Below are positions 21,804 through 35,752 of a DNA stretch of 64,000 nt, piece after piece (position 1 is the stretch's first letter; every line of letters starts with the position of its first letter). Source of the DNA: a candidate division WWE3 bacterium RAAC2_WWE3_1 (GTDB lineage Bacteria; Patescibacteriota; WWE3; UBA101185; UBA10185); assembly GCA_000503835.1 (NCBI GenBank), contig CP006914.1, positions 721,680 through 785,679 of the forward strand. The letters run 5' to 3'. The position numbers were made by a program, and so were the translations under genes. The notes below the pieces were generated by a model. It ran no database searches and was not told where the DNA came from. It saw nothing but the letters and a program-made list of their open reading frames with translations.

Positions 21804-22724
21804 TTAAAAAGCCCTATTTACCAGATAAACGCCTATCGTAATTGCCAATATTGCAAACATTCTCTGCGCAAGTGTCTTTCTTGATATATCCTCTTTTGAT
21901 ATTCTTGGAAAAAGAATTGTAAGTATTATTCCAAACAAAAACACAAAAAAAGGCTGGAGACCATTGATTATCCATATCAGTGTCACCGGAGCAAGTATGG
22001 ACGCATAATTGAAGGAAATTTTAGCAACTATATTTACAATTTCGTTTGTAATATTTACTCCCAGAACTTGAGTTTTATTTGTTTTTAATACACTAATAAA
22101 TCCATCTCTGTAGCTTTTGATAAAGATGAGTAAAAATAATCCGAATAATCCAAATCCAATATATTCCCAGAAACTTGTTATAAAGAAGTCTGTTTCCACT
22201 GCAAAATATTTAAAGAATATAAAATTAAGAGAATACAGAAGACTTGATAGTACCATCAAGAGGAATACATCCCACTTCATATGAATTTTTTTAATATCCG
22301 CTAGGTTGAGCGAAATGAAAACGGAAGATACAAGAATTATTATCCCTCCAAGGATTTGATTGATATCCAAAACCTCTCCTAGAAAGATATAACCAAGAAT
22401 AAAGGAGAAAACAGGAATCATTTGGAACAGTGGAACCGTTAGCGATGCGTCATCTTTATCAAGAGCGTAGAAGTAGGGTAAGGTTGCCAATAGATAAAAA
22501 GACCCGTTTACAACAATTAACAAGTAGCTAAGGTTGAATTGTTGAAGGACTACCGGGTGAATTATTGCTATTACCGGAAGGAGGAGTACGGAAACACTGG
22601 CTGAGAATATCATAACCGAACCAACAGCACCCTTGTTAAAGAACTTAGTTAGGAGATATTTATCTATATGGTTTGTAACGCTCCAAAGTATTGGGGGTAA
22701 GAGTGCCATTAAAAACCAATCCAT
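21804..22724 (-). CDS. EamA/DMT-family transporter
   Basis: 306 aa, 10 TM helices in two 5-TM halves. The HIDKYLLTKFF region is typical of EamA. Confidence 0.6.
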   Translation of the reverse strand: MDWFLMALLPPILWSVTNHIDKYLLTKFFNKGAVGSVMIFSASVSVLLLPVIAIIHPVVLQQFNLSYLLIVVNGSFYLLATLPYFYALDKDDASLTVPLFQMIPVFSFILGYIFLGEVLDINQILGGIIILVSSVFISLNLADIKKIHMKWDVFLLMVLSSLLYSLNFIFFKYFAVETDFFITSFWEYIGFGLFGLFLLIFIKSYRDGFISVLKTNKTQVLGVNITNEIVNIVAKISFNYASILAPVTLIWIINGLQPFFVFLFGIILTILFPRISKEDISRKTLAQRMFAILAITIGVYLVNRAF

Positions 22725-22790
22725 ACGGAGATTATATCAGGGTTCGATTGTTATCCGGTGGGTTTTTTTGTTATGTTAAGTAAGATTTGT
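22725..22790 (-). promoter_or_regulatory. repeated promoter module, copy 1 (TGATATAATCTCCGT immediately 5' of the ATG; leaderless-type)
   Basis: Shares AGATTATATCA..GTTATC..TTAAGTAAGATTTG with 23273..23320. A TATAAT -10 lies 8-9 nt from the start codon. Confidence 0.35.
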
Positions 22791-22894
22791 CTCCCCCTCG
22801 CCGACCGTAACCTTAACATAACTAAGTATTTTATGCGAACCATTAAGATATTTGAGGATTTTAAGCTAGTACAAGGATTGAGGGAAGAAATAAA

Positions 22895-23272
22895 TTATTT
22901 CAAATTTCCATCAGAAAAATAATGCGATTCATCCTGAAACCTATTTGGCCAGAAGTCCAACTGTTCTCCTGGAATATTTAGTCTTTTACCAAAATCAATT
23001 ATCGGTTTCCAAGAGTTAGCATGAGGTTTTACATCAAAAACCTTGTTTTTAAAAAGTACAATTAGCCTCTCATCATTATAAAGGTGGGCATACCACGTCC
23101 CCTCGCTCTTCATATTTTTTTGAATCTTATTAATCACTTCCTGTAACTGAGAATCGTCAATTTCAATTCCATAGATACGCCACGACCCGTCTTGTTTTTT
23201 AGCGAATATTTTAAAAGAGTTTATAAATTCCTGGTCAATAAATTCCTGGTCAATAATAATTCCATGGTACAT
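22895..23272 (-). CDS. hypothetical protein
   Basis: 125 aa. Contains an internal 15-nt tandem duplication (IDQEF IDQEF). Confidence 0.4.
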   Translation of the reverse strand: MYHGIIIDQEFIDQEFINSFKIFAKKQDGSWRIYGIEIDDSQLQEVINKIQKNMKSEGTWYAHLYNDERLIVLFKNKVFDVKPHANSWKPIIDFGKRLNIPGEQLDFWPNRFQDESHYFSDGNLK

Positions 23273-23320
23273 ACGAAGATTATATCATCAGTTATCTTAA
23301 GTAAGATTTGGCTCACCATA
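23273..23320 (-). promoter_or_regulatory. repeated promoter module, copy 2 (TGATATAATCTTCGT immediately 5' of the ATG)
   Basis: Near-identical core to copy 1 at 22725..22790. Confidence 0.35.
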
Positions 23321-23364
23321 CACAACTATATCCGAGTATTATGAAAATGCTGGTGGGCTGTTAA

Positions 23365-23424
23365 GAGAAAAAATACCGCCTTGGGGAACTGTGAAAATTG
23401 CTTATTCACGTTTCCTTACGGCGG
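23365..23424 (-). terminator. conserved about 60-nt hairpin element, copy B (terminator-like)
   Basis: On the minus strand CCGCC..(GTGAATAAGCAATTTTCAC)..GGCGG followed by TATTTTTTCTC. Directly 3' of gene 23453..23743. Confidence 0.4.
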
Positions 23425-23452
23425 AGTGAGCTTAAATTTTATTTAAAGCATT

Positions 23453-23743
23453 TTATGGGAACAAGGCAAGGATAAGAGTTCCAAATAGGTGAAATGCGGC
23501 CAGCGCTGCAAACGAAAGAAACACAAGACCTGCTGCCACATACCCCCGTCCTGTGTGTTTGAGGAAAATTACCCCAATAATCACAGCGCAGGAACCATAG
23601 ATCGTGCTCAGCACAATTTCAAGCGGTTTAGATACAGCATATAGACCGATGTAGCCCAAAAAATCATAGATTACAGCAAGGTAAAATATTACCGCTACGG
23701 TGACTAATAGCCACATCAGATTTTTTTGTGCCTTAATAAACAT
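23453..23743 (-). CDS. small membrane protein (3 TM), hypothetical
   Basis: 96-aa hydrophobic ORF. Confidence 0.4.
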   Translation of the reverse strand: MFIKAQKNLMWLLVTVAVIFYLAVIYDFLGYIGLYAVSKPLEIVLSTIYGSCAVIIGVIFLKHTGRGYVAAGLVFLSFAALAAFHLFGTLILALFP

Positions 23744-24050
23744 GATTTTCTCTCCTTTTATCTATACAGTCCGCAAAGAATTTGTGCGGTTTATGAACGA
23801 TTTGTAGAGATTATAGCTTAGAATGGGTGAATAGTCAACCTATAGTGTAGATATTGGCTCGCTAGTTGGGGCGCTTTTCGTACTATGGAAATAGAGAGTT
23901 TTGTTTATGAAGAGGCTTTAGAAGTTTTGAGTTAGTAATTACCCCACACCTTCACACACTTTACTTTTTGATAAAAAAAGAGCCCTCTATTTTCATAGTG
24001 AGCTCTGTTTGCCGTAATGGCGATAAATATTTCTTTTGACGTTCTTGTCT

Positions 24051-24251
24051 CTATTCGGCTACAACGAGTTCGTATTCGCCGCAATCGCAGTGAGCAGTTC
24101 TGGAACCGAGGTTTCCCGATGTTTCGCGAGACAGGTGCACATGGCTACCATGACAATATGGGCAATCGCCCACGATGATGCAAAAACCGCCAACCTTCAA
24201 TTTCATCCCAACTCTTGCTTTTGCTGTAGGGAGATTTTTTTCTTCTGGCAT
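24051..24251 (-). CDS. small Cys/His-rich protein, hypothetical
   Basis: 66 aa with GDCPYCHGSHVH and HCDCGEYE motifs. Sits in a locally GC-rich (about 50%) segment. Confidence 0.3.
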   Translation of the reverse strand: MPEEKNLPTAKARVGMKLKVGGFCIIVGDCPYCHGSHVHLSRETSGNLGSRTAHCDCGEYELVVAE

Positions 24252-24260
24252 TTCTTCCTC

Positions 24261-24656
24261 CTAGCTCACAACGTAGTAGTAGGGCATGCCGCCTGGAAGT
24301 GCTGACCACATTTCGCGCGGAAGACAGGGTTTGACCTTGCCAATGGCGATGCCAAGCTGGAACAGTTGCTCCATAGTTTGGTGCATTCCCGTCCATTGGT
24401 TACCGTTTCGGTCGAAGCAAGCGTTCAGGAAAGACATACCTCCACCACCAGAAACCTTGAAATCATCAGGCAGTCCGGCGAGCATTGCTTCGATGTCTTT
24501 GCGGTGACTCTCGAGTCGCTGTGGGTTGAATCCGACCGTGCATGTAATGCCTTCGGCATTGACATGGTTCGTTGTGTCTTCGCCGTCCTTGAACATGCAG
24601 TCGTTAAAGACCGCGACGACCTTCTCTGCTGTTAAAGCATTCTGGTCCATTTTCAC
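24261..24656 (-). CDS. hypothetical protein (GC-rich foreign-looking segment)
   Basis: 131-aa ORF with GGAGAGG RBS. Local GC is clearly above the window average. Confidence 0.4.
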   Translation of the reverse strand: MKMDQNALTAEKVVAVFNDCMFKDGEDTTNHVNAEGITCTVGFNPQRLESHRKDIEAMLAGLPDDFKVSGGGGMSFLNACFDRNGNQWTGMHQTMEQLFQLGIAIGKVKPCLPREMWSALPGGMPYYYVVS

Positions 24657-24792
24657 CTCTCTCCTTTGTTATTGGTGGATATTGATAGCGGTATTATAAG
24701 GTAAAATCGTGGTTTAATCAACCTGTAGTGTATGATACATGTTCTGAAACATAGACACGGTCTTTGTAGAAAGAGATGTAATAGGCTAATAG

Positions 24793-25275
24793 TTTCAGGA
24801 GTTTACAGGTGAAAGAAACGAGCTTATAGACCAAAGGAAGAGGCTAAACACAAAGGACAGTAGCTTTTATGAGAAAACTGCAACACTTTACGACGTTGCC
24901 CAAGAGGGTATAGCGATTTATGAAGGTTCAAAAGAATTTGGAAAGCGCAGACTTATAAAGCTTATGTTCACAGATATGGTTCTAAATAGTGGGAACCTAC
25001 CTTTTGCCTATACAAAGCCTTATAAGACATTAAGAAAAGCTGTAGAAGAAACTAACGGTTCGAAAATAGCTGAAAATCCTACCTTTATGAAAAATATTTT
25101 CGAACTCAAGGATTTCAGCGAAGTGAAAGCAAAAATGGAGCTTTTGGGCGTCGATTGTTCTAATTGGCTCCGAGCTGTGCAGGAACTTAGAACCGTTATT
25201 TTAAGCGGTCGGCACTCCTACGAAATGGAGGCGGCTGTCAAAAAGCTCCGAGGAGAAGAACCGTTCGATGAGTAA
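24793..25275 (+). pseudogene. 5'-truncated gene fragment, copy 1 of a duplicated unknown gene (island boundary repeat)
   Basis: Open frame from stop 24790..24792 with no start until an internal Met at 24964. About 75% nt identity to 34726..35148. Translation ...ERNELIDQRKRLNTKD..FTDMVLNSGNLPFAYTKPYKTLRKAVEETNGSK... Confidence 0.5.
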
Positions 25276-25427
25276 ACGATGAGGTGGATGGAGAGGGTTA
25301 AGCCTGTAGCCAGTTCACGCTAAAAGGCGAAATTTTAGTGAATTGAATACTGTTTATTGTTCTTATTCACTAAACTTCAAAAGTGAACTGGAAAGGACCT
25401 TCAACGCCCTTTCCAGTTAAAAAGAGG

Positions 25428-28307
25428 TTATTCTGGAAAGCTGTACTTTTGTTCTCGTTTTTGGAATGCCTCTTGACCTCCCTCGAGAATTTCACAGACA
25501 TGCTGCCGAATCCCTTTGCGATATAAAATCGCTGGCTCTTCTGTAGCCTCTAACTCAAAGGTATTTTCAAGCGCACCAGAAACGTACTCAAAGCGAAACT
25601 TCTTATTTTCTCTCCCCACCTCCTGTCCGGACTGATTCGCAACAACTGTTTCTTCCGCGTCCGCACCGACAACAAGATTCGGGTTATGAGTGACAATGAC
25701 AATTTGCCTCTGCAATTTTTTCTTTTTCAAGAAATCAACCAAGTCATCATATACAGATCGATTATCAAGATCGTCCTCTGGCTGATCGAGAAGAATAGGC
25801 CACTCTTCGTCACTTAAATTAATAAGCAGCTGTAGAAGTACTAATCCCTTTTTGCCCGGTGACATTTTGTCGAGAGAGTCATTTTTATAGAAAATCCTGA
25901 AGTCGAGATAAAAATAGTTTTCCAAAAGCTTGGCAACAGCATCTTTTGGCTGTCGGTTCTTGACGGTGTTTATCGTCCCCTCGATAAGCCCCTCAAATAC
26001 TGTCGTCATATTGGCCAAATGTTTGGCCGGATCGTACTTGTAAACGAATTCATCACCCCACTCTGCCTCTACAATGACGCGCTTGAGGTCATTTTTATTT
26101 ATATATTCTTTAACCACGTCTGAGTTGAAGACATCGTCGTTAAAACTGACATGTACTCCAAGGGTGATTTCACCGAATTTACTTTCAAATTTCTTGAACT
26201 CATTCCGTAAGCCTTCATGCTTAGCAACTATCAATTTATATGAATCAATGACCCCGTCAGCCTTCTTTTTATAGGAGGCCTTCTTCGTCTTGAGATTATT
26301 TCTCTTGATGGCGATCTCATTTAATTTCTGTTGTTCTTTTTTAATAGCGTCGGTTTTTTCTTGAAGCTCCGATTGTAACTTAACTTTAGCTAGCAAAGGT
26401 GCTAACTCCGCTTTGATTTTGATTAGCTCCGCGTTGTAAGTCGTGATCTTTGTGTCGATAGCCGTAACCAAATTTGTGGTAGCAGATTTTACATTCGGAG
26501 CAAATGAATCCACTACTTTTAGTTCGATTTTAAACTTGGCTTTGATTTCAGCATCGTTGAGATATGCTTCATATTCGTCTGCCATTGTCCGCAAACCATC
26601 GACTTGGGATACCAAGCTGGTGTTGAGGTTTTTAATCGTCTTTTTATCTTCTTCGAGATTTGAAACTTGAGTAGTAATGTCCTTTTCTTTTGTTACCAAG
26701 TCCTCGTACTGCTTAAGTTGCTCTTCCGATAAGCCTGATTTTGCTTTGATATCATCGGCTTGTTTTTGGAGGGTTTGTATATAGCTCTCAATACCTTTTT
26801 CATCACCGGTCTGCTTCAGTTCTTCTTCGGTTTTCTTAATATCGTCCCGATCAGAAAATAGCTCACCAATCTCGGTTGGGATAGACTTAACCTTAACCTT
26901 TATTTCTTGCACGGTCTCCTCGTATTTTTCTCTGATAGTCGGTTCTTGAAGAATTACATTCAAAACAAACTCATTAAGTGCCTCACGGCTTTTAATGTTT
27001 GCTTCTGAAAGAGTGTTTAGATATTTCTGCGGTATATAAAGAATTTTTCGCTCCTTAGACTCATCTTCTGTGGCTCCATCCGGCACTCTTAGCAAAGTAC
27101 GCTGACCATCTTTCCACGTTACTTCAAAATTGAAATCAACTGATGCATCAAAGTCGTATTTTACCGGTACCCCACTATCAGCTGTCCGGTTCTTAACTTC
27201 TTCTCGGTCAATCGTTTTGGCCATGTAATAAAGCAATAGAGACTTGCCGGTTGATTTGCCTCCAATAATCGTAGTTAGATTTTGATTGATCTCAATTGAC
27301 TCACTGCCAAATTTTGCATCGCTGGTATTATCAAGAAAGCGGACTTTATCGATAACAAAATAAGATTTTTTCTCTTCGGGTTTTTGAGGGCCGACAAAGA
27401 TACGTTGCTCTGGTTCGTAAATAATCTGCTTCAATCCCTCAAATGTAGGGTCTGCTTTAATCCATAAGAAATTATCATCCTGATCGCATCGGCCAAGGTC
27501 TCTAAGTGACCTTGCGTCTGAACTAATATGGGCGCAAAACTTTGATGTAAGTGTTGCATTGGTCTTAATATATTCAGAAACAGCAACGGAAGATTGATTG
27601 TGCTGTGACTGTAAAAGATTTACTTTCTGATGATTGAAAATATCCGCGAGATGAGTTCTGTCTGTGCTTGTCCTTTCCTGAAATAACCCATTGCTACTAT
27701 TACAGTGAGGATAGATCACGATGCTGTTATTCTTTTTTGCCTCATTTAAGATATCCTTTATATCCGCAGTCGTTGTAGTAAGCACCCCATCTACATTCGT
27801 TCGATTGTTAATATTGAATTTCGTTAAAAAAGCATGAATCCCAGCCGAAAAAGTTTCTTTTCCATAAAGCTTCTCCCGGAAAAATAAAAGCATGTGAATG
27901 CCTTGGCAGTTGATTTCAACACCCGGTATCACTTTGCACCGAGATTGTTTTGCATATTCTATAAAAGAATCGAGCAAGCAATCATCAAAATAGTTATGAT
28001 CCGTAATGCCAATGCATTCAAGTTCGGGATTAAAGACGTCTAAAAATGCAAAATAACTTCTGACGTAATTAACACATCGATCATTCTTGGGAATGGCCGT
28101 ATCGTTAAAATAAGCCTTCGAGTCATACAGCAGAGCATTCTCTTCGCCACCAACTTTAGCAATGTATTGTTGCCAACCGGTAGGATTCGCTAGTTTTAGC
28201 TCTTCGGAATATTGACTAAGGGATATGTAGCCATCGTCCAATATGGTTTGCGTTTGCAAGTCCCATTTTCGCCATATTGAACCTTTTGTATATGGAAAGT
28301 TGCTCAT
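25428..28307 (-). CDS. PHP-like phosphoesterase domain fused to a Rad50/SbcC-like coiled-coil ABC ATPase (candidate defence nuclease/ATPase)
   Basis: N-terminal PHP-like motifs (KWDLQTQT, IGITDHNYF, VIPGVEI, IVIYPHC, HISSDAR) with His to Gln/Arg substitutions. Walker A IIGGKSTGKS, about 350-aa coiled-coil, signature-like MSPGKKGLVLLQLL, Walker B ILLDQPEDDLD, H-loop IVTHNP. Confidence 0.7.
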   Translation of the reverse strand: MSNFPYTKGSIWRKWDLQTQTILDDGYISLSQYSEELKLANPTGWQQYIAKVGGEENALLYDSKAYFNDTAIPKNDRCVNYVRSYFAFLDVFNPELECIGITDHNYFDDCLLDSFIEYAKQSRCKVIPGVEINCQGIHMLLFFREKLYGKETFSAGIHAFLTKFNINNRTNVDGVLTTTTADIKDILNEAKKNNSIVIYPHCNSSNGLFQERTSTDRTHLADIFNHQKVNLLQSQHNQSSVAVSEYIKTNATLTSKFCAHISSDARSLRDLGRCDQDDNFLWIKADPTFEGLKQIIYEPEQRIFVGPQKPEEKKSYFVIDKVRFLDNTSDAKFGSESIEINQNLTTIIGGKSTGKSLLLYYMAKTIDREEVKNRTADSGVPVKYDFDASVDFNFEVTWKDGQRTLLRVPDGATEDESKERKILYIPQKYLNTLSEANIKSREALNEFVLNVILQEPTIREKYEETVQEIKVKVKSIPTEIGELFSDRDDIKKTEEELKQTGDEKGIESYIQTLQKQADDIKAKSGLSEEQLKQYEDLVTKEKDITTQVSNLEEDKKTIKNLNTSLVSQVDGLRTMADEYEAYLNDAEIKAKFKIELKVVDSFAPNVKSATTNLVTAIDTKITTYNAELIKIKAELAPLLAKVKLQSELQEKTDAIKKEQQKLNEIAIKRNNLKTKKASYKKKADGVIDSYKLIVAKHEGLRNEFKKFESKFGEITLGVHVSFNDDVFNSDVVKEYINKNDLKRVIVEAEWGDEFVYKYDPAKHLANMTTVFEGLIEGTINTVKNRQPKDAVAKLLENYFYLDFRIFYKNDSLDKMSPGKKGLVLLQLLINLSDEEWPILLDQPEDDLDNRSVYDDLVDFLKKKKLQRQIVIVTHNPNLVVGADAEETVVANQSGQEVGRENKKFRFEYVSGALENTFELEATEEPAILYRKGIRQHVCEILEGGQEAFQKREQKYSFPE

Positions 28308-28311
28308 AAGC

Positions 28312-29184
28312 TTAATTCGATTTTTGGTTAAAATATATTACCTTATCTATTTTCTTAAAAAGAAAATTCAAGAATGACAACAGGTCCAGAGCCTCTTCTC
28401 GGTTAATAGGCCAATCAAGTGCTGGTTCATGGGCTTGGGGGTTACGAATAGCTCGCATTAGACCTACCGAAAGATGCATAACACCCTCTTGTTCATTCTT
28501 TTCAGTTCTTGTCTGTTGTGCATTCAGCTTAAGCGTACCGGTAAGCGCAAGAGCGTTTTCCATTAATCGCGATCCATACTCAGACATCTGAGATTTTTCT
28601 TGAATTTCTTTGTCATAAACCTTGCAACATTCAAAGACCGCATGAAAATAATTTCTCTCGGTAAATAGTTTTCGAGCATGCTGGGAAATTTTATTGTGAA
28701 ATTTACGGTCATCAAAAATTTTGGCGTTCTCCGGTATAGCCTTCGATAAAGATGTGATTTTCTCTCCGGACTTCCGTAGCTTCCCATCATCGCCAACCAG
28801 CAAACCGTAAAACCTTAAAATTTGATTCACTTGTTTACAAATAACCTCATGTTTTTCTGGAGCAGAAAAATACTCCTGTGGATCACAAAGTTGTTGAATC
28901 AGCGTCGCGATGTTAAATGTGCCGTAGGTCTGTTTCTGCATTGCTTCCAGAGCAGCATAAACGAACCGCCACTTCGTGCCGCCATCATGGGATATCTCTG
29001 GAAAGCCTGCTTTACGAAAAAGCTCGGATATTTCTGACCCGGTATAGTTGTCTCCGATTATTTTTGCCAGTGCTTCAAGGGCAGGCAACTTAAATGGTTC
29101 TAATTCCATATTCGCTACTTTAGTAATCCACAACCGAACCGCTTCCGTTTTCGTAAGATTTTCGGTATAATGGAAATATAGCAC
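28312..29184 (-). CDS. HEPN-domain protein of the Ymh/TIGR02391 type (Rx4HxE motif)
   Basis: C-terminal NYFHAVFECCKVYDKEIQ...EQEGVMHLSVGLMRAIRNPQAHEP...EALDLLSFLNFL matches the Hypoth_Ymh/TIGR02391 HEPN pattern. 4-bp gap to the downstream ATPase gene, so operonic. Confidence 0.6.
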   Translation of the reverse strand: MLYFHYTENLTKTEAVRLWITKVANMELEPFKLPALEALAKIIGDNYTGSEISELFRKAGFPEISHDGGTKWRFVYAALEAMQKQTYGTFNIATLIQQLCDPQEYFSAPEKHEVICKQVNQILRFYGLLVGDDGKLRKSGEKITSLSKAIPENAKIFDDRKFHNKISQHARKLFTERNYFHAVFECCKVYDKEIQEKSQMSEYGSRLMENALALTGTLKLNAQQTRTEKNEQEGVMHLSVGLMRAIRNPQAHEPALDWPINREEALDLLSFLNFLFKKIDKVIYFNQKSN

Positions 29185-29211
29185 TTTCGGCTTTAAACAT
29201 CAATCAAACTT

Positions 29212-30906
29212 ATGGGTATTCCAGTCACTAAACGACAAAAAGAAGTTTTAGACTTCGTAAAAACCTTCATTGATGATCAGGGCTACTCTCCGACTCTGGA
29301 AGAAATAAAGAAAAAATTACACCTCTCTGCTGTATCAACGGTTCACCAGCATATTAACGCCCTCATTGATAAAGGTTATATAAAAAAGTTCGACAATCTT
29401 GCTCGAGCTATTGAAGTCAATGGCCGGAGGGAAGAAAGTGTAAATAATTTTATAGAAATCCCTCTACTAGGCATGATCGCGGCTGGTAAGCCAATAGAGG
29501 CTATAGAAATACCAGAAACTATTTCCGTGCCTAAAGATTTTACATCAGGCCATGCCCGACACTATGCATTAAAAGTTCGCGGAGATAGTATGCAAGACGA
29601 CGGAATCTTTGATAGTGATACTGTGATTGTCCGCGAACAACCAGTGGTTGATAATGGTGAGATCGGCGTGGCTATTATAAATGGAAACGAAGCTACTCTT
29701 AAAAGAATCTACAAAGAAAAAAATGGTATCAGACTTCAACCAGCCAATGAAAGTTATAAACCTATACTCACCAAGAATGTCGAAATTAGAGGCAAAGTCA
29801 CGGGCGTATTACGAAACAGGTTCGATTCTTTACCTGAACCAGCCCAGCTCCCCTTATTCGTCTATCCTCAAAAAAGCGAACAACGGTTACTTCAAATACA
29901 TAACCGAAGGTTTCTGGGTAACAAAACTAAACTTCTTGGTTTTATAGGAGACATTGTAGCTGACAAATGTCGTGGCTATTATAGCTTTTGTGATATCTTT
30001 GCGGGTACCGGAGTTGTTGGACATTATTTCAATAGGCCAGATACCAAAATCATCTCGAATGATATTCTCGATAGTAGCTTTGTATCTCTTCAATGCTGGC
30101 TGAACACCAAAAATTACAACGAAGAAAAGATATCAAACATCATCGGACATTTAAATAACCTTCAACCGAAGAAAGAGAATTACGTATCGGAAATTTTTGG
30201 CGGCTCTTATTTTACTAAGGAAAATGCACAGAAAATCGGAGCTGTCAGAGAAAAAATAGAAAAACTACATAAAGATGGGGAGATCGACCAGGAAGAGAAA
30301 AATATTCTGCTGACTTCATTAGTTTACGCAATTGATAAAGTGGCTAATACTGTCGGCCATTATGAGACCTATAGAAAAAAACTCGATACAATACAGAGTT
30401 TGCGACTTTTAATGCCAGGCATTGATGTGAAAAACAATCTTAATAATGAAGTTCATCAAAAAGACGCAAATCAACTGATTAGAGAAATCGCGTGTGATGT
30501 GCTTTATATTGATCCACCATACAACTCAAGACAGTATGGAGATTCCTATCACCTACTAGAGAATATTGTTACCTGGGAGAAACCAAAAGTTGAGGGTATA
30601 GGAAAAAAAATGGTAGACCGCGAACATCTAAAAAGCCGTTACTGTTTAAAGGGTGCAGTTCACGCTTTCGAAGATTTGATACAGAACGCAAAAACAAAGC
30701 ATATTCTGGTCTCCTATAACAACACCGGCGAGAAAATGAACGAACGCTCCAACGCTAAAATACCCGATCACAGGATTATTGAGATTTTGAAAGAGCGAGG
30801 AGAGGTTGAGGTCTTCGAGCGAGAATATAAAGCATTCACTACCGGTAAAAGCGAAGCACCGGGTCATACCGAGCGCGTATTTTACTGCAAAGTTACAGGT
30901 AAATAA
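29212..30906 (+). CDS. LexA-like repressor (wHTH plus S24 autopeptidase) fused to a Dam-family (D12 class) N6-adenine DNA methyltransferase
   Basis: Residues 1-200: HTH, AAG cleavage site, GDSM catalytic Ser and LKR Lys of LexA/S24. Residues about 225-564: RRFLGNKTKLL, FCDIFAGTGVVG (motif I) and DPPY (motif IV) of Dam/D12 MTases. Single uninterrupted ORF. Confidence 0.75.
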   Translation: MGIPVTKRQKEVLDFVKTFIDDQGYSPTLEEIKKKLHLSAVSTVHQHINALIDKGYIKKFDNLARAIEVNGRREESVNNFIEIPLLGMIAAGKPIEAIEIPETISVPKDFTSGHARHYALKVRGDSMQDDGIFDSDTVIVREQPVVDNGEIGVAIINGNEATLKRIYKEKNGIRLQPANESYKPILTKNVEIRGKVTGVLRNRFDSLPEPAQLPLFVYPQKSEQRLLQIHNRRFLGNKTKLLGFIGDIVADKCRGYYSFCDIFAGTGVVGHYFNRPDTKIISNDILDSSFVSLQCWLNTKNYNEEKISNIIGHLNNLQPKKENYVSEIFGGSYFTKENAQKIGAVREKIEKLHKDGEIDQEEKNILLTSLVYAIDKVANTVGHYETYRKKLDTIQSLRLLMPGIDVKNNLNNEVHQKDANQLIREIACDVLYIDPPYNSRQYGDSYHLLENIVTWEKPKVEGIGKKMVDREHLKSRYCLKGAVHAFEDLIQNAKTKHILVSYNNTGEKMNERSNAKIPDHRIIEILKERGEVEVFEREYKAFTTGKSEAPGHTERVFYCKVTGK

Positions 30907-30913
30907 TAAATTT

Positions 30914-32731
30914 ATGAAAAAAATTTGGAGCATATCAACAACGGTTAGAAACCCAGAGAGAATCAGGAACTTCCTGGTCGCCCTAAAACCTTTAGATGGT
31001 GAGGTCTGGAATCACGATACTCAAAGGCGATTCCAAATACTCCTCATTCAGCACAAATTATACGGTGCTGGGAATAAACAATTTACAAACAATCTCTCTC
31101 GGGAGCATAGAGAATTGTTGGAAAATTCAGAGACTCTTACCTACGAACAAGCCGAAGAAATTCTAAATGCGAGAAATTATGTCGGTGCTGGTGATATGCG
31201 AGGCCGACAATCATTCAATCCGATTAAAAAGATGGGACTGGCAAAAATAGATGACCAGGGTCGGATTCGGATAACTTCTTTTGGAGAATACCTGCTGAAA
31301 GAAGATGCCGATCTTGGTGAAATGTTCTTTAAGAGTTTTCTTAAATGGCAATTACCGAATCCTCTTTCAAGAGATTTTAAGGTTGAAGATGGATATGACA
31401 TTAAACCTTTCATCGCGACGCTCCACCTCATCAACAAAGTGAATAAAATTTGTCGCAAGCGCGGACTTACTGAGAAAGGGCTATCTCAAGCTGAGTTTGA
31501 TATCTTTGTTCCTACACTTATTAGCTATCAAAATATTCAGGCTCAAGCTCGTAAGGTACTAGAATTTCGAACAGGTCTCGAGAGACTTGCCAATGAGCGA
31601 GAAAAACAAACGTACACCCATAGTTATGTAAGCGAAAACTTTGAAGATTTTGAAAATATGGAACACACCAAGGACTATGGCGACAATATTCGTCGCTATT
31701 TTCGAATGACTAGGTACTTCCATTTGCGTGGCAACGGTTATTATATTGATCTTGAGCCAAGGAGAAGTATTGAAATTCAAAAGATATTGAAGACGGACAA
31801 CGGCTCAAGCCAAGATTTTACTGCGGAAGCATATATTGATTACATCTCTGACATTAACCTGCCAATTCTGCCTTGGGAAACTCAAACAGAGTTGGTGCGA
31901 ATTAGTAACTATACAGCTGATGATATCAGGCAGTATCAAAACCAACTCAGAGAACAAAGAATACAAATACCTGATTTTGAATTTAAGAACACCGATCGTC
32001 TTTCGGTTGAACAACTAAAAGCCTATGTCGGTGAATTGAGAGATTACCGCAGAACTCTTCAAGAAACCGAGGATCACTTTGTATCTCAGAATGTCGACAA
32101 GGTCAGAGAATATATAGATCGGCTACGCAACATTCGACAATCCAAAGAGAAAAAGAGCATTGAGCTTGAACATTTAGCTACTCTAGCTTTGAATGCTATT
32201 AATGACGCACTTGCAATAAAGCCAAACTATCCAGTGGGAGACGATAACCAGCCAACTTTTACAGCACCAGCAAACAAACCAGACATTGAATGTTTCTACG
32301 ACGCATTTAATGGCGTATGCGAAGTAACCATGCTTACTAACCGCGCTCAGTGGATGCAAGAAGGTCAGCCAGTAATGAGACATCTAAGGGACTTCGAGGA
32401 TGCAAATAATAGTAAAGATACTTACTGTTTGTTTGTCGCTCCAACTTTGCATAGAGACACCGTAAATACTTTCTGGACAGCTGTTAAATATGAGTATGAA
32501 GGACGTCGACAAAAGATCGTACCGTTGACGATTAATGAACTCGCAAAATTACTAGAAGCGATTATTGCGATGAAGGACCGTGGTCAGCGACTTGATCACC
32601 GGCAACTCATGAATCTTTACGATTCCATAATCAACTTGACCAGCACAGCGCCTAGCTCTGATGTCTGGACTTCGCAAATATCCGGAGTCGTCGAACAGTG
32701 GTCTCGAGAAATTTTATCAGCACAAGTATGA
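30914..32731 (+). CDS. Type IIS restriction/nicking endonuclease, AlwI/N.BstNBI (RE_AlwI) family
   Basis: N-terminal WSISTTVRNPERI..GEVW, central RRYFRMTRYFHLRGNGYYIDLEP, PDIECFYDAFNGVCEVT, YCLFVAPT and C-terminal IVPLTINELAKLL. These co-linear blocks match N.BstNBI/AlwI family proteins as I recall them. Start set at ATG 30914 just after the upstream stop; the ORF track's 30806 start overlaps the upstream gene. Confidence 0.7.
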   Translation: MKKIWSISTTVRNPERIRNFLVALKPLDGEVWNHDTQRRFQILLIQHKLYGAGNKQFTNNLSREHRELLENSETLTYEQAEEILNARNYVGAGDMRGRQSFNPIKKMGLAKIDDQGRIRITSFGEYLLKEDADLGEMFFKSFLKWQLPNPLSRDFKVEDGYDIKPFIATLHLINKVNKICRKRGLTEKGLSQAEFDIFVPTLISYQNIQAQARKVLEFRTGLERLANEREKQTYTHSYVSENFEDFENMEHTKDYGDNIRRYFRMTRYFHLRGNGYYIDLEPRRSIEIQKILKTDNGSSQDFTAEAYIDYISDINLPILPWETQTELVRISNYTADDIRQYQNQLREQRIQIPDFEFKNTDRLSVEQLKAYVGELRDYRRTLQETEDHFVSQNVDKVREYIDRLRNIRQSKEKKSIELEHLATLALNAINDALAIKPNYPVGDDNQPTFTAPANKPDIECFYDAFNGVCEVTMLTNRAQWMQEGQPVMRHLRDFEDANNSKDTYCLFVAPTLHRDTVNTFWTAVKYEYEGRRQKIVPLTINELAKLLEAIIAMKDRGQRLDHRQLMNLYDSIINLTSTAPSSDVWTSQISGVVEQWSREILSAQV

Positions 32732-33498
32732 AGCTAAACACCATTCACAAAGGCGATTGCCGGACAATATTAAATAAGGACATCCCGGAAGAAAGCGTGG
32801 ATTTGATTTTTGCCGATCCTCCATACAACCTGTCAGGGAATGGCCTTAAATGGGAAGGAAATAAAACAGGTGGAGACTGGTTCATGGTTAACGAAAAGTG
32901 GGACCGGATGACCGAAGCCGAGTATTTAAAATTTACCAAAGAATGGATAGAGGCCTGCAAAAGAGTTTTAAAACCGACTGGCAGTATTTATATTTCCTGC
33001 ACATATCATAATATTGGTGAACTAATCATGGTTCTTAAGGCTCTTGGATTTATTCCAAGGAATATTATTACCTGGCACAAGAATAACGCTATGCCAAGCA
33101 TGACTCGACGCACCTTTACTCATTCATGCGAATACATACTATTTTTCTCAAAGGGTAAGAAATGGGTATTTAATTATTCAGAGATCAAAAAAATAAATCC
33201 AGAGAGAGCAAAAGATGGGTCCGAAAAACAAATGCGTGATCTCTGGATTATGCCTATTGTACAGGGCAAAGAACGAGTGAAGGATAAAACCGGTCGCTCT
33301 GCTCATCCAACACAAAAACCAGAGAATCTACTTGAAAGAGTTATCCTGGCTAGCAGCAACAAAGGAGATATTGTCCTTGATCCTTTTCTCGGAAGTGGAA
33401 CTACTGCAGTAGTAGCTAAACGTTTGGGTAGGAAATGGGTAGGTATTGAAACTGAAGATAAGTATGTAAAAGTCGCTGAAAAACGCCTCAATAATTAG
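32728..33498 (+). CDS. beta-class N6-adenine/N4-cytosine DNA methyltransferase (N6_N4_Mtase)
   Basis: DPPY (motif IV) precedes FLGSGTT (motif I), which is the beta permutation. ATG 32728 overlaps the endonuclease stop (ATGA), suggesting translational coupling. Confidence 0.8.
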   Translation: MKLNTIHKGDCRTILNKDIPEESVDLIFADPPYNLSGNGLKWEGNKTGGDWFMVNEKWDRMTEAEYLKFTKEWIEACKRVLKPTGSIYISCTYHNIGELIMVLKALGFIPRNIITWHKNNAMPSMTRRTFTHSCEYILFFSKGKKWVFNYSEIKKINPERAKDGSEKQMRDLWIMPIVQGKERVKDKTGRSAHPTQKPENLLERVILASSNKGDIVLDPFLGSGTTAVVAKRLGRKWVGIETEDKYVKVAEKRLNN

Positions 33499-33791: not shown

Positions 33792-33992
33792 ATGTTGCCC
33801 CAAGAAGCAATTCAAGAATTCAAAGAATTATACGAGAAACGCTACGGCGTAAAGCTCTCCGACGAGGAGGCCGCTTTGCGTGCCAACAATCTTTTTAAAC
33901 TCTACAAAATCACCTACATGGGTGAGCCAAACATCGATGACTTTAAAGAAAAAGTAGTGAAAAGCCATGACCTACAACAAAACCACAATTAG
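33792..33992 (+). CDS. hypothetical small protein
   Basis: 66-aa ORF. Upstream tandem GATTAGAC(A) direct repeats at 33745..33771. Confidence 0.3.
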   Translation: MLPQEAIQEFKELYEKRYGVKLSDEEAALRANNLFKLYKITYMGEPNIDDFKEKVVKSHDLQQNHN

Positions 33993-34275
33993 CGAAACCC
34001 AGTTCTATCCGGTTAAACCCCAGGACGGCCTCCTAGGGTTTGTTTTGTTTGTCCTGGACGGGAAATTCTGGATGGGATCAGTGGCCGTGTTTAGTCGGCC
34101 GGACGGCCGATACCGGTTGGTTTACCCGACACGAAAAGTTGGCGGCCAAAATATTAATGTCTTTCATCCAATTAACCAAGAGGCAGGCCAACAGGTCGAA
34201 GCGGCCGTCAGTGAAAAAGTAGCTGAAATATTTAGTGAATCATGTGAACAAACCGAACCGGACAACACGTGGTAA
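33967..34275 (+). CDS. SpoVG-like protein
   Basis: FYPVKPQDGLLGFVLFVLDGKFWMGSVAVFSRPDGRYRLVYPTRKV...VFHPINQEAGQQVEAAV parallels the SpoVG fold (..ASITLD..F.V....G..VAMPS......HPIN...R..I). Confidence 0.45.
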   Translation: MTYNKTTISETQFYPVKPQDGLLGFVLFVLDGKFWMGSVAVFSRPDGRYRLVYPTRKVGGQNINVFHPINQEAGQQVEAAVSEKVAEIFSESCEQTEPDNTW

Positions 34276-35183: not shown

Positions 35184-35752
35184 CATGTGATCCGTTTGTT
35201 TCCAAACAGCATGGACTATCTCATCATCTTTTGTGTCACCACATTAAGATGTCGGGCGCTCTAGGGTGTAATCACCTAGTCTCTGCACCTTTTCATGTGT
35301 ACCCGGCAAGGCGTACAAATGAACTTGGCTCAGGATTACCATGTCCGTCGATTAATCGACAGAGTTAGGTTTCCCTGAGTTCACCCAATTTTTCAACCGT
35401 CGTTTCCGGCGGAAGCTGCACTACTCCGTTATGAATTTCCTTGTGACAGTTCGAACAGACTAAAACACATTTTTCAAGCTCTCTTTTAATTGTTTCCCAA
35501 CTTCTCGTTAGTCCGCGACTGGCGAGCCCGAAGTCTTTTTTCTGCCCATCTTTATGGTGAAACTCTAATGCCGCAAAGCATTTGTTATAACCACAAAGGT
35601 TGCATTTATTTCCAAGGTACTCGACTGCCAGCATTTTCAGTTTTCGTCTTCTCTTAGAGACAGCGAGACTGAGATAGCGGGGTCTGTCTGAGTACCTTCG
35701 GGTTTCCTTCGTCACAAGATATTTATATAACTTTCATAACGGTTGTCAACGT
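35184..35752 (-). other. tRNA intron (group I-like, inferred) carrying an HNH endonuclease ORF
   Basis: Lies between the two tRNA-Asn exons. Contains CDS 35365..35715 on the same strand. The secondary structure was not verified. Confidence 0.45.
35365..35715 (-). CDS. HNH homing endonuclease
   Basis: CNLCGYNKC...EFHHKDGQKKD...CSNCHKEIHNG. Canonical HNH motif with zinc-binding Cys pairs. 116 aa. Confidence 0.7.
   Translation of the reverse strand: MTKETRRYSDRPRYLSLAVSKRRRKLKMLAVEYLGNKCNLCGYNKCFAALEFHHKDGQKKDFGLASRGLTRSWETIKRELEKCVLVCSNCHKEIHNGVVQLPPETTVEKLGELRET

Follow-up and report, generated by a model that had tools for sequence, protein, structure and literature searches.

The question raised by this locus is whether a HEPN gene and the gene that follows it after four nucleotides, encoding a 959-aa protein with a PHP-like domain and an ATPase, work together as one defence system or only share a site beside a restriction-modification (RM) operon. 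The pair lies on the minus strand of a stretch of 64,000 nucleotides (hereafter the window) from candidate division WWE3 bacterium RAAC2_WWE3_1 (assembly GCA_000503835.1, contig CP006914.1, positions 721,680 to 785,679), and an original prediction, made by a model from the letters alone, had proposed it as a novel two-gene defence module. We found that the 959-aa protein belongs to the named TrlF family and that the pairing of TrlF with a Ymh-type HEPN protein recurs, and does so far more often than the background frequency of TrlF genes would give, yet is facultative and shows no sign of co-evolution. HEPN and TrlF genes are independent, mobile, RM-linked cassettes, and the slot for a nucleoside triphosphatase (NTPase) after HEPN is interchangeable, being taken by TrlF, AAA_13, SMC-like or UvrD proteins. 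The best reading, to which we give a probability of about one half, is that the pair may serve as a facultative abortive-infection backup to the adjacent AlwI-type RM system, resembling a PrrC or RloC protein split over two genes.

The larger protein scored 491.6 bits against the NCBIfam model NF045780, 'TrlF family AAA-like ATPase' (cut-off 350, E 7.3e-147), with residues 92-955 aligned to positions 39-943 of the 944 in the model. It is thus a TrlF protein and not the undescribed type that the original prediction had seen in it. The scores against other families are a different matter. The NCBIfam model Spaf_1101 gave 142.6 against a cut-off of 475, and membership of Ppl was rejected at 101.8 bits where NF042955 demands 1000. 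The Ppl model of PADLOC-DB v2.0.0, a library of hidden Markov models (HMMs) without curated cut-offs, reached 65.1 bits, its best stretch covering the C-terminal lobe (model positions 773-888 of 894), and matches to the LmuB model of the same library were marginal (E 0.025). A canonical SbcC/Rad50 was likewise rejected, since neither AAA_23 nor SbcC_Walker_B matched at E<=1 and NCBIfam Rad50 scored 19.3 against 847 bits; no SbcD or Metallophos neighbour was found by Pfam among the neighbouring open reading frames (ORFs). This outcome favours the original prediction, which an SbcC with a housekeeping SbcD neighbour would have refuted. Pfam itself returned sub-threshold matches to PHP and SMC_N only, and a PDB sequence search with the family profile was uninformative (best match PtuA, E 0.008). 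Homologues are numerous, 2373 at E<=1e-10, and the nearest of them come from metagenome-assembled genomes of Patescibacteria, the candidate phyla radiation (CPR).

Every motif that had been quoted for this protein is present at its place (Table 1). The ATPase motif residues, including G349-L357 and Q427, do not vary across an alignment of 20 sequences that are 45-84% identical to the window protein, and the C-lobe is the best-conserved region of TrlF, with a mean identity of 0.87 among close and 0.78 among distant homologues. Between the two lobes the full-length AlphaFold2 (AF2) model places helices at residues 438-452, 456-500, 503-521, 528-580, 586-596 and 599-711, mostly at a predicted local distance difference test score (pLDDT) of 75-92. 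The coiled coil would therefore span about 275 aa (438-711), and the roughly 350 aa first estimated is too long. No cysteine lies between residues 275 and 937, coiled coil included, which excludes a zinc hook. In the full-length model the PHP domain and helices 438-711 are confident and the ATPase heads poor, so that the Foldseek matches of this model in the PDB (MukB, Smc, JetC, Rad50, LmuB (9hqx_B) and RecN) were used for class assignment only. Taken together, the models support an SMC/Rad50-class ABC ATPase with a coiled-coil insertion, preceded by a fused PHP domain. In other words, the PHP fold and the SMC/Rad50 class that had been predicted hold, and the SbcC-type label does not extend to a match with the SbcC Pfam family.

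The PHP domain has a variant metal site. For residues 1-312, an AF2 model based on a 20-sequence alignment reached a mean pLDDT of 90.9, and its top 19 Foldseek matches in the PDB are all PHP-domain proteins, including BVU_3505, BAD_1165, PolC, Pol III alpha, RNase AM and Cv1693; the PHP fold of this region is thus confirmed. The PHP motifs read DLQTQ (16-20), TDHN (102-105), PGVEI (128-132) and SDAR (263-266). Three metal-ligand histidines are replaced, by Q18, Q20 and R266, which agrees with the partly degenerate motifs noted earlier, and D103, H104, E131, H138, H201 and D264 are kept. Among 72 homologues at least 58% identical to the window protein, Q18 is found in 69, Q20 in 63 and R266 in 70, and the kept residues are present in all 72. 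Mean identity across this set is 0.74 for the PHP core and 0.78 for the ATPase N-lobe. Some TrlF members have the full canonical ligand set, e.g. P0107 with DLHFH, TDHH, E, H, H and SDNH, and there are intermediates that combine DLQVH with SDAK or DLHVH with SDAR. Because Q18, Q20 and R266 are conserved, the core is about as conserved as the ATPase N-lobe and intermediates exist, the Q/Q/R site is a selected variant and not a product of decay; a decaying PHP domain was rejected on the first two of these grounds. The clade also carries a specific helical insert of 75 residues (at about 21-95) in the PHP domain. The insert and the Q/Q/R site distinguish it from the NF045780 family at large, the match to which begins only at residue 92. 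A tie between the degenerate site and the pairing with HEPN, which the original prediction had suggested, was rejected, as the HEPN-paired TrlFs of three other loci (L084, L089 and L095) keep DLH[VI]H and SD[SA]H.

The partner is a HEPN protein of the Ymh/TIGR02391 family, as had been claimed. It scored 113.6 bits against Pfam PF09509 (Hypoth_Ymh; threshold 25, E 6.5e-33) and 90.2 bits against TIGR02391 (cut-off 39.45), and it has the conserved Rx4H motif. The PADLOC model PD-Lambda-3_B matched residues 28-282 on positions 4-263 of 270 (E 7.1e-36). The motif, RNPQAHE (nt 28426-28446, residues 247-253 in the 290-aa numbering), is indeed of HEPN type, its exact form being Rx4H followed directly by E and not the Rx4HxE first given. 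R, N, H and E of this catalytic motif are the same in all of 23 homologues (50-85% identity); as with the ATPase motifs, such conservation goes far beyond chance. The protein is the predicted RNase effector. There are 593 homologues at E<=1e-5, and an identical protein is annotated in candidate division WWE3; all 24 of the 24 contigs examined for the HEPN protein carry the same locus as the window. A scan of viral contigs with the HEPN profile yielded just two distant matches, at 23% identity.

How often the two genes meet was addressed from the HEPN side by locus look-ups and a metagenome scan. A survey of recurrence, which the original prediction had proposed, did find the pair elsewhere, in a few other uncultured bacteria. 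Within the close HEPN clade (at least 68% identity), an NTPase gene lies directly downstream in 11 of about 13 dereplicated loci. It encodes TrlF in four dereplicated lineages (the window with L079/L087, L084/85, L089 and L095) and an AAA_13 ATPase in a further three (L094, L096/97 and L098). Two lineages (L088 and L090/91) have an SMC_N/AAA_23 ATPase, separated from HEPN by a conserved 64-aa ORF, and two others a UvrD helicase (L080-83/93 and L086/92); Type III Res follows HEPN in two lineages (L099 and L101). By PADLOC likeness, UvrD resembles GajB, AAA_13 resembles PDC-S06/LmuB, SMC resembles LmuB/PtuA and TrlF resembles Ppl. The HEPN-paired TrlFs beyond the window's own lineage pass the TrlF cut-off as well (404.5, 576 and 355.9 bits). 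The four lineages are mutually only 24-30% identical in best local alignments, bar one 142-residue stretch at 46%, and the HEPN partners in the TrlF-paired loci are 77-96% identical to that of the window. The junction of stop codon, 4 nt and ATG recurs in L084, L087, L089 and L095.

The surroundings of these pairs are RM genes. The three-gene island of LexA-methyltransferase fusion, AlwI endonuclease and methyltransferase that adjoins the window pair also flanks HEPN-TrlF in L089 and begins in L087, and other HEPN-TrlF pairs come after HinfI or Type III RM genes. In L089 (618-8778) this same island stands beside a HEPN protein 87% identical to that of the window and a TrlF that is about 25% identical and has canonical PHP histidines. 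Island and HEPN are thus conserved and TrlF is not, and therefore the ATPase cassette has been replaced within a conserved locus, at a fixed junction.

Some further associations of Ymh genes are worth recording. The 64-aa ORF between HEPN and the LmuB/PtuA-like SMC ATPase (822-824 aa) is conserved and has no Pfam match (L088:906-1100, L090:4651-4845), and in L090 a PDC-S53-like helicase (PADLOC E 6e-256) comes after the SMC ATPase. In L080:301-5795, as well as in L081-L083 and L093, HEPN-UvrD and a Type III RM system lie beside Collar/Amidase_2 phage-like genes and a divergent NYN-domain gene; such a region may be a CPR prophage, or phage-derived, carrying a defence cluster. In L163:3394-5762, a distant Ymh gene (28% identity) overlaps the end of an RVT_1 reverse-transcriptase gene by 4 nt, which suggests another Ymh partnership, resembling a defence-associated reverse transcriptase (DRT) or a retron.

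Seen from the other side, TrlF is a mobile accessory gene that is usually RM-linked. A scan of one genome per species gave 78 TrlF loci; in 68 of them the TrlF ORF is 800 aa or longer, and in 61 the sequence extends 1 kb or more upstream. The genes tightly coupled to TrlF on its upstream side are very diverse and by Pfam are RM components of all types, TrlF being inserted in RM operons of Types I, II, IIG, III and IV. Among these neighbours are MvaI/BcnI, CfrBI, XhoI and HinP1I endonucleases, an HsdM-S fusion, SNF2/ResIII helicases, MmeI and Eco57I-type enzymes, GmrSD-HNH and N6_N4 methyltransferases. TrlF is also found with hsdS upstream and hsdR downstream: in L004:4781-11753 and L006:4746-11778, a TrlF 75-83% identical to that of the window stands between these genes of a Type I operon, and this is the position of PrrC in EcoprrI. 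No constant downstream partner of TrlF was found in these loci, where the downstream genes include RmuC, DUF2130, DUF4268, resolvase and Metallophos_2. Relatives on enterobacterial plasmids account for 1074 records, and the top matches are named 'TrlF family AAA-like ATPase' by the NCBI annotation pipeline (PGAP).

What might the pair do? The 4-nt junction TAA-GCTT-ATG suggests translational coupling, and the two genes would then form a translationally coupled accessory operon attached to the AlwI-type RM island of a CPR bacterium. TrlF would be a DNA-engaging ATPase monitoring the DNA or the state of restriction (e.g. phage DNA, DNA ends or restriction failure), and it would gate the HEPN RNase according to the logic of a split PrrC/RloC; once released, HEPN would cut tRNA or mRNA and abort the infection when RM has been overcome. 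We prefer this split PrrC/RloC reading because the catalytic motifs are intact, both genes are RM-linked, the junction is coupled and the position after HEPN is an NTPase slot. It also draws on precedents considered below, namely a two-gene relative in PD-lambda-3, the proposal made for Ymh-paraMORC proteins, the control of RloC by its ATPase and the genetics of Photorhabdus. Everything past domain identity and gene arrangement we infer, and this holds for the RNase activity, the physical or functional coupling of HEPN and TrlF, the trigger and the abortive-infection outcome.

A number of our observations weigh against such cooperation, and they also bear on the main rival explanation, which we hold to be less probable: both genes may be independent single-gene cassettes that share a hitch-hiker slot at RM operons, TrlF acting alone like Ppl, Ymh acting alone or with RM enzymes, and their adjacency resulting from shuffling. 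Each gene occurs far more often without the other. Neither phmmer nor an HMM from the HEPN alignment found a Ymh gene in any of the 78 representative-genome TrlF loci, the 68 with an ORF of at least 800 aa included, and none stands beside 11 close TrlF relatives at 75-87% identity; the three at 85-87% are RM-linked where their surroundings are readable. TrlF keeps company with unrelated genes in RM operons of every type listed above, and it occurs solo on plasmids, as on one enterobacterial plasmid where it lies beside an Abi family protein. Ymh, for its part, is often found without an accessory NTPase, either solo or between hsd genes: the more distant Ymh genes (protein identity 44-58%) are often part of Type I operons, where they separate hsdS from hsdR or hsdR from hsdS, and others are embedded between mod and res with no extra NTPase. 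HEPN proteins at 77-96% identity beside TrlFs at about 25% argue against a co-evolved interface. The cassette replacement in L089 fits independent cassettes, and the heads of the TrlF model are poor (pLDDT under 55 at residues 313-430 and under 35 at 872-959). With no Ymh in 68 TrlF loci and with AAA_13, SMC-like and UvrD partners for the same HEPN clade, the tight two-gene module of the original prediction had to be given up. Several facts, however, speak against independence of the genes. The same 4-nt coupled junction is seen in four deeply divergent TrlF lineages, and the close HEPN clade almost always directly precedes some NTPase. TrlF is very rare among all genes, and its occurrence at 4 of the roughly 13 dereplicated loci thus amounts to a strong enrichment. 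Finally, PD-lambda-3, a validated relative, consists of two genes (PADLOC models A and B; PMC10952713).

TrlF might instead partner the restriction enzymes, as an Mre11-Rad50-like DNA-end processor or translocase whose task would be to break down or sense the products of restriction or to limit damage by self-restriction, HEPN being a separate insertion. Such a role would suit its SMC/Rad50-class fold with a phosphoesterase domain and its position directly after MvaI/BcnI, CfrBI, XhoI, HinP1I, MmeI or Eco57I-type genes or between hsdS and hsdR. We nevertheless consider it improbable, since in the window the RM operon is divergent and TrlF is coupled to the HEPN gene, since TrlF has no RM genes nearby in Photorhabdus, where it stands between polA and dsbA (bioRxiv 10.1101/2020.06.02.129163), nor on Enterobacter plasmids, and since the many RM types involved speak against one specific protein partner. 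More improbable still is an addiction module of toxin-antitoxin type that stabilises the RM island or a mobile element, with HEPN as the toxin and TrlF as its neutraliser. HEPN toxins are common in toxin-antitoxin systems (PMC3710099), the absence of trlF loss-of-function mutations in Photorhabdus despite the larger target fits a protective role (bioRxiv 10.1101/2020.06.02.129163), and the G+C content of the island is lower, 0.39 against about 0.43-0.45 in the flanks. However, a 959-aa ATPase would be an atypical antitoxin, there is no MNT-type partner, Ymh genes frequently lack such a neighbour, and the homologous PD-lambda-3 defends against phage lambda (PMC13190303).

One may also speculate, although we think it unlikely, that the CPR-type Ymh HEPN together with any NTPase that follows it constitutes an unnamed family of RM-coupled abortive-infection systems, in which a constant RNase is licensed by interchangeable DNA-sensing motors. 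TrlF with its Q/Q/R PHP pocket would then be a sensor or regulator and not a nuclease, which would explain the phenotype of the Photorhabdus Temperature Restricting Locus (TRL) by TrlF restraining a toxic TrlG. If the two proteins do cooperate, the locus would represent a natural split PrrC/RloC design in which at least four NTPase classes take turns in the sensor position beside a nearly constant effector, and it would be a handy system for studying how SMC-like, ABC and superfamily 1 (SF1) motors signal to an RNase that 'DNA is wrong'. It would also provide a function for the widespread, uncharacterised TrlF family (more than 1000 plasmid records and the Photorhabdus locus) and imply that CPR bacteria with their tiny genomes keep a layered defence of RM and an abortive-infection backup. 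If the genes are independent, the locus is merely two known cassette types side by side in a defence island. The lead is useful for understanding TrlF and modular HEPN systems.

The layout of the locus (Table 1) bears out the description of two co-oriented genes 4 nt apart with HEPN first, both ORFs and the junction having been confirmed, as well as the placement within an RM island, whose LexA-methyltransferase fusion, AlwI endonuclease and N6_N4 methyltransferase were identified by Pfam. The start of the HEPN gene deserves comment. The mechanical ORF (28312..29184, minus strand) begins at a GTG and encodes 290 aa, whereas the public call P0121 begins at TTG 29133 and gives 273 aa. The coding sequence probably starts at ATG 29109 or at TTG 29133 rather than at GTG 29184, because homologues are 260-275 aa long, most of them starting MELEPF. 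The shorter versions are also favoured by a promoter-like -35/-10 pair on the minus strand (29203-29175), which falls inside the GTG-extended 290-aa ORF. An imperfect inverted repeat at 29133-29166 (ACCGAACCGCTTCCG / CGTAAGATTTTCGGT, 73% complementary) may serve the LexA-methyltransferase fusion as its operator, and it corresponds neither to a canonical LexA box nor to a Cheo box.

Table 1. Features of the HEPN-TrlF locus and the adjoining RM operon, in window coordinates
Feature	Position	Strand	Details and basis
TrlF-family gene (PHP + SMC/Rad50-class ABC ATPase)	25428..28307	minus	959 aa, ATG start; NCBIfam NF045780
ABC ATPase C-lobe	25428..26174	minus	residues 712-959 + stop codon; signature-like SPGKK 816-820, Walker B LLDQPEDD 839-846, H-loop VTHNP 872-876
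Coiled-coil insertion	26175..26996	minus	residues about 438-711; long helices in full-length AF2 model
ABC ATPase N-lobe	26997..27371	minus	residues 313-437; Walker A GKSTGKS 350-356, Q-loop YIPQ 424-427; pLDDT about 50 in full-length AF2 model
PHP-fold domain, N-terminal	27372..28307	minus	residues 1-312; AF2 model, Foldseek
Spacer GCTT, HEPN stop TAA to TrlF ATG	28308..28311	minus	4 nt; sequence read directly
Ymh/TIGR02391-type HEPN gene	28312..29109	minus	probable coding sequence, 265 aa from ATG 29109
HEPN (Hypoth_Ymh) domain, C-terminal	28348..28707	minus	residues 160-279 (290-aa numbering); Pfam
Divergent intergenic/promoter region, HEPN-TrlF operon vs LexA-methyltransferase gene	29110..29211	.	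102 bp
RM operon, divergent from HEPN-TrlF pair	29212..33498	+	Pfam; public gene calls on source contig
LexA_DNA_bind + Peptidase_S24 + D12 methyltransferase fusion	29212-30906	+	Pfam
AlwI-family endonuclease ORF	30806-32731	+	641 aa, TTG start; Pfam
N6_N4 methyltransferase	32698-33498	+	Pfam

The fusion joins a complete LexA-like module (LexA_DNA_bind and Peptidase_S24) to a D12 N6-adenine methyltransferase and is conserved in at least two further loci, L089:3213-4901 and L087:2-994, on the minus strand in both. Such a self-cleaving repressor-methylase could link expression of the RM genes and of the divergent HEPN-TrlF operon to DNA damage. The AlwI ORF shares about 100 nt with the 3' end of the methyltransferase gene; the public call is 538 aa long and would thus start near 31115. 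Just past the RM operon lies a SpoVG-like ORF slightly under threshold (33967-34275, plus strand; 25.2 vs 29.6 bits), and farther on a 116-aa ORF (35365-35715, minus strand) shows an HNH-endonuclease-like CxxC...HH...CxxCH spacing with no Pfam match at E<=0.01. The G+C content is 0.36-0.40 in most 2-kb intervals of 22001-32000 (0.44 at 24001-26000) as against about 0.43-0.45 across most of the flanks, which is consistent with horizontal acquisition of the RM/HEPN/TrlF island.

Among known systems, the locus that gave TrlF its name comes first, the Temperature Restricting Locus trlR-trlF-trlG of Photorhabdus laumondii, where TrlF ('histidinol phosphatase') is co-operonic with the growth-arresting TrlG (AlbA_2 + HATPase_c_4) (bioRxiv 10.1101/2020.06.02.129163). 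The mutations that confer tolerance of 36-37 °C were all in trlG, none in trlF, the larger gene (bioRxiv 10.1101/2020.06.02.129163), which fits TrlF as a regulator and not as a toxic effector. The two loci share a PHP and ABC ATPase protein that is co-operonic with a smaller, likely toxic partner. They differ in that TrlG is encoded downstream and accompanied by a small regulator, TrlR, whereas the partner in the window is a Ymh HEPN encoded upstream; by Pfam, neither TrlG-type domains nor TrlR was found in the ORFs neighbouring the window pair.

Ppl is reportedly a single-gene PHP and ATPase defence protein, from the work of Gao et al. 2020. The window TrlF has the same domain order, PHP then ABC ATPase, and a recognisably similar C-terminal ATPase lobe, but Ppl acts alone and its cut-off is missed tenfold. 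With Lamassu and Mre11-Rad50/SbcCD the pair shares a modular combination of an SMC/Rad50-class coiled-coil ATPase and a nuclease-type effector. In Lamassu, however, the SMC protein (LmuB) is constant and the effector (LmuA) varies, whereas the window clade has a constant HEPN and a variable NTPase; at the window pair neither an LmuA/LmuC homologue nor an SbcD/Mre11 neighbour was found. As for HEPN-MNT modules, no nucleotidyltransferase domain was found by Pfam in the neighbouring ORFs.

A relative of the HEPN protein is found in PD-lambda-3, which is said to be a two-gene abortive-infection system of E. coli, described by Vassallo et al. 2022. Its activity against phage lambda by abortive infection has been validated (PMC9519451, PMC13190303). 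Like the window pair, it is a two-gene operon with a Ymh-type protein, and the window HEPN is a full-length homologue of its component B. Its component A, on the other hand, is listed as PD-(D/E)XK nuclease-like (PMC10952713) where the window has a PHP-ABC ATPase, and assignment to PD-lambda-3 itself was rejected, as neither window protein matches PD-Lambda-3_A at E<=1.

The comparison that bears on the preferred reading is with PrrC and RloC. In RloC the anticodon nuclease is under the control of its Rad50-like ATPase (PMC3458546, PMC3874168). PrrC, RloC, the Ymh-paraMORC fusions of RM loci and the window pair all combine an ABC/Rad50-like ATPase with a HEPN RNase and are RM-linked, and for all of them a role as a suicidal second line after failed restriction has been proposed; RloC has, in addition, a long coiled-coil insertion in its ATPase, as TrlF does. 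The window pair adjoins an RM operon, that of the LexA-methyltransferase, AlwI and methyltransferase genes. The differences are nonetheless considerable. In the window ATPase and HEPN are separate polypeptides with HEPN first, and there is an extra PHP domain. The HEPN is of the Ymh and not of the PrrC family, the zinc hook (CxxC) that RloC carries at the coiled-coil apex is missing from TrlF, and PrrC resides inside a Type Ic hsd operon whereas the window pair is divergent from a Type II-like AlwI system. Membership of PrrC/RloC was thus rejected, given two ORFs separated by a stop and a 4-nt spacer, the lack of a zinc hook and another HEPN family.

How new, then, is the arrangement? Neither the Ymh-TrlF pairing nor a single HEPN clade with interchangeable NTPase partners was found in PADLOC-DB v2.0.0 or in the searched literature, where part of the results were mostly unrelated acronym matches. 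The papers relevant to the locus are Hapeshi 2020, Anantharaman 2013, Makarova 2012 and Vassallo 2022. The novelty claimed by the original prediction would thus hold for the specific Ymh-TrlF operon and not for its elements, since Ymh in RM operons and Ymh with an ATPase are already in PMC3710099. Ymh genes within Type I operons were noted earlier (PMC3710099, PMC3506569). Anantharaman et al. 2013 (PMC3710099) described Ymh in RM operons and proposed Ymh-paraMORC fusions as functional analogues of PrrC/RloC. That a HEPN protein linked to RM works with an ATPase is therefore an established concept, and the locus is not a system of a new kind but a new combination of known defence parts.

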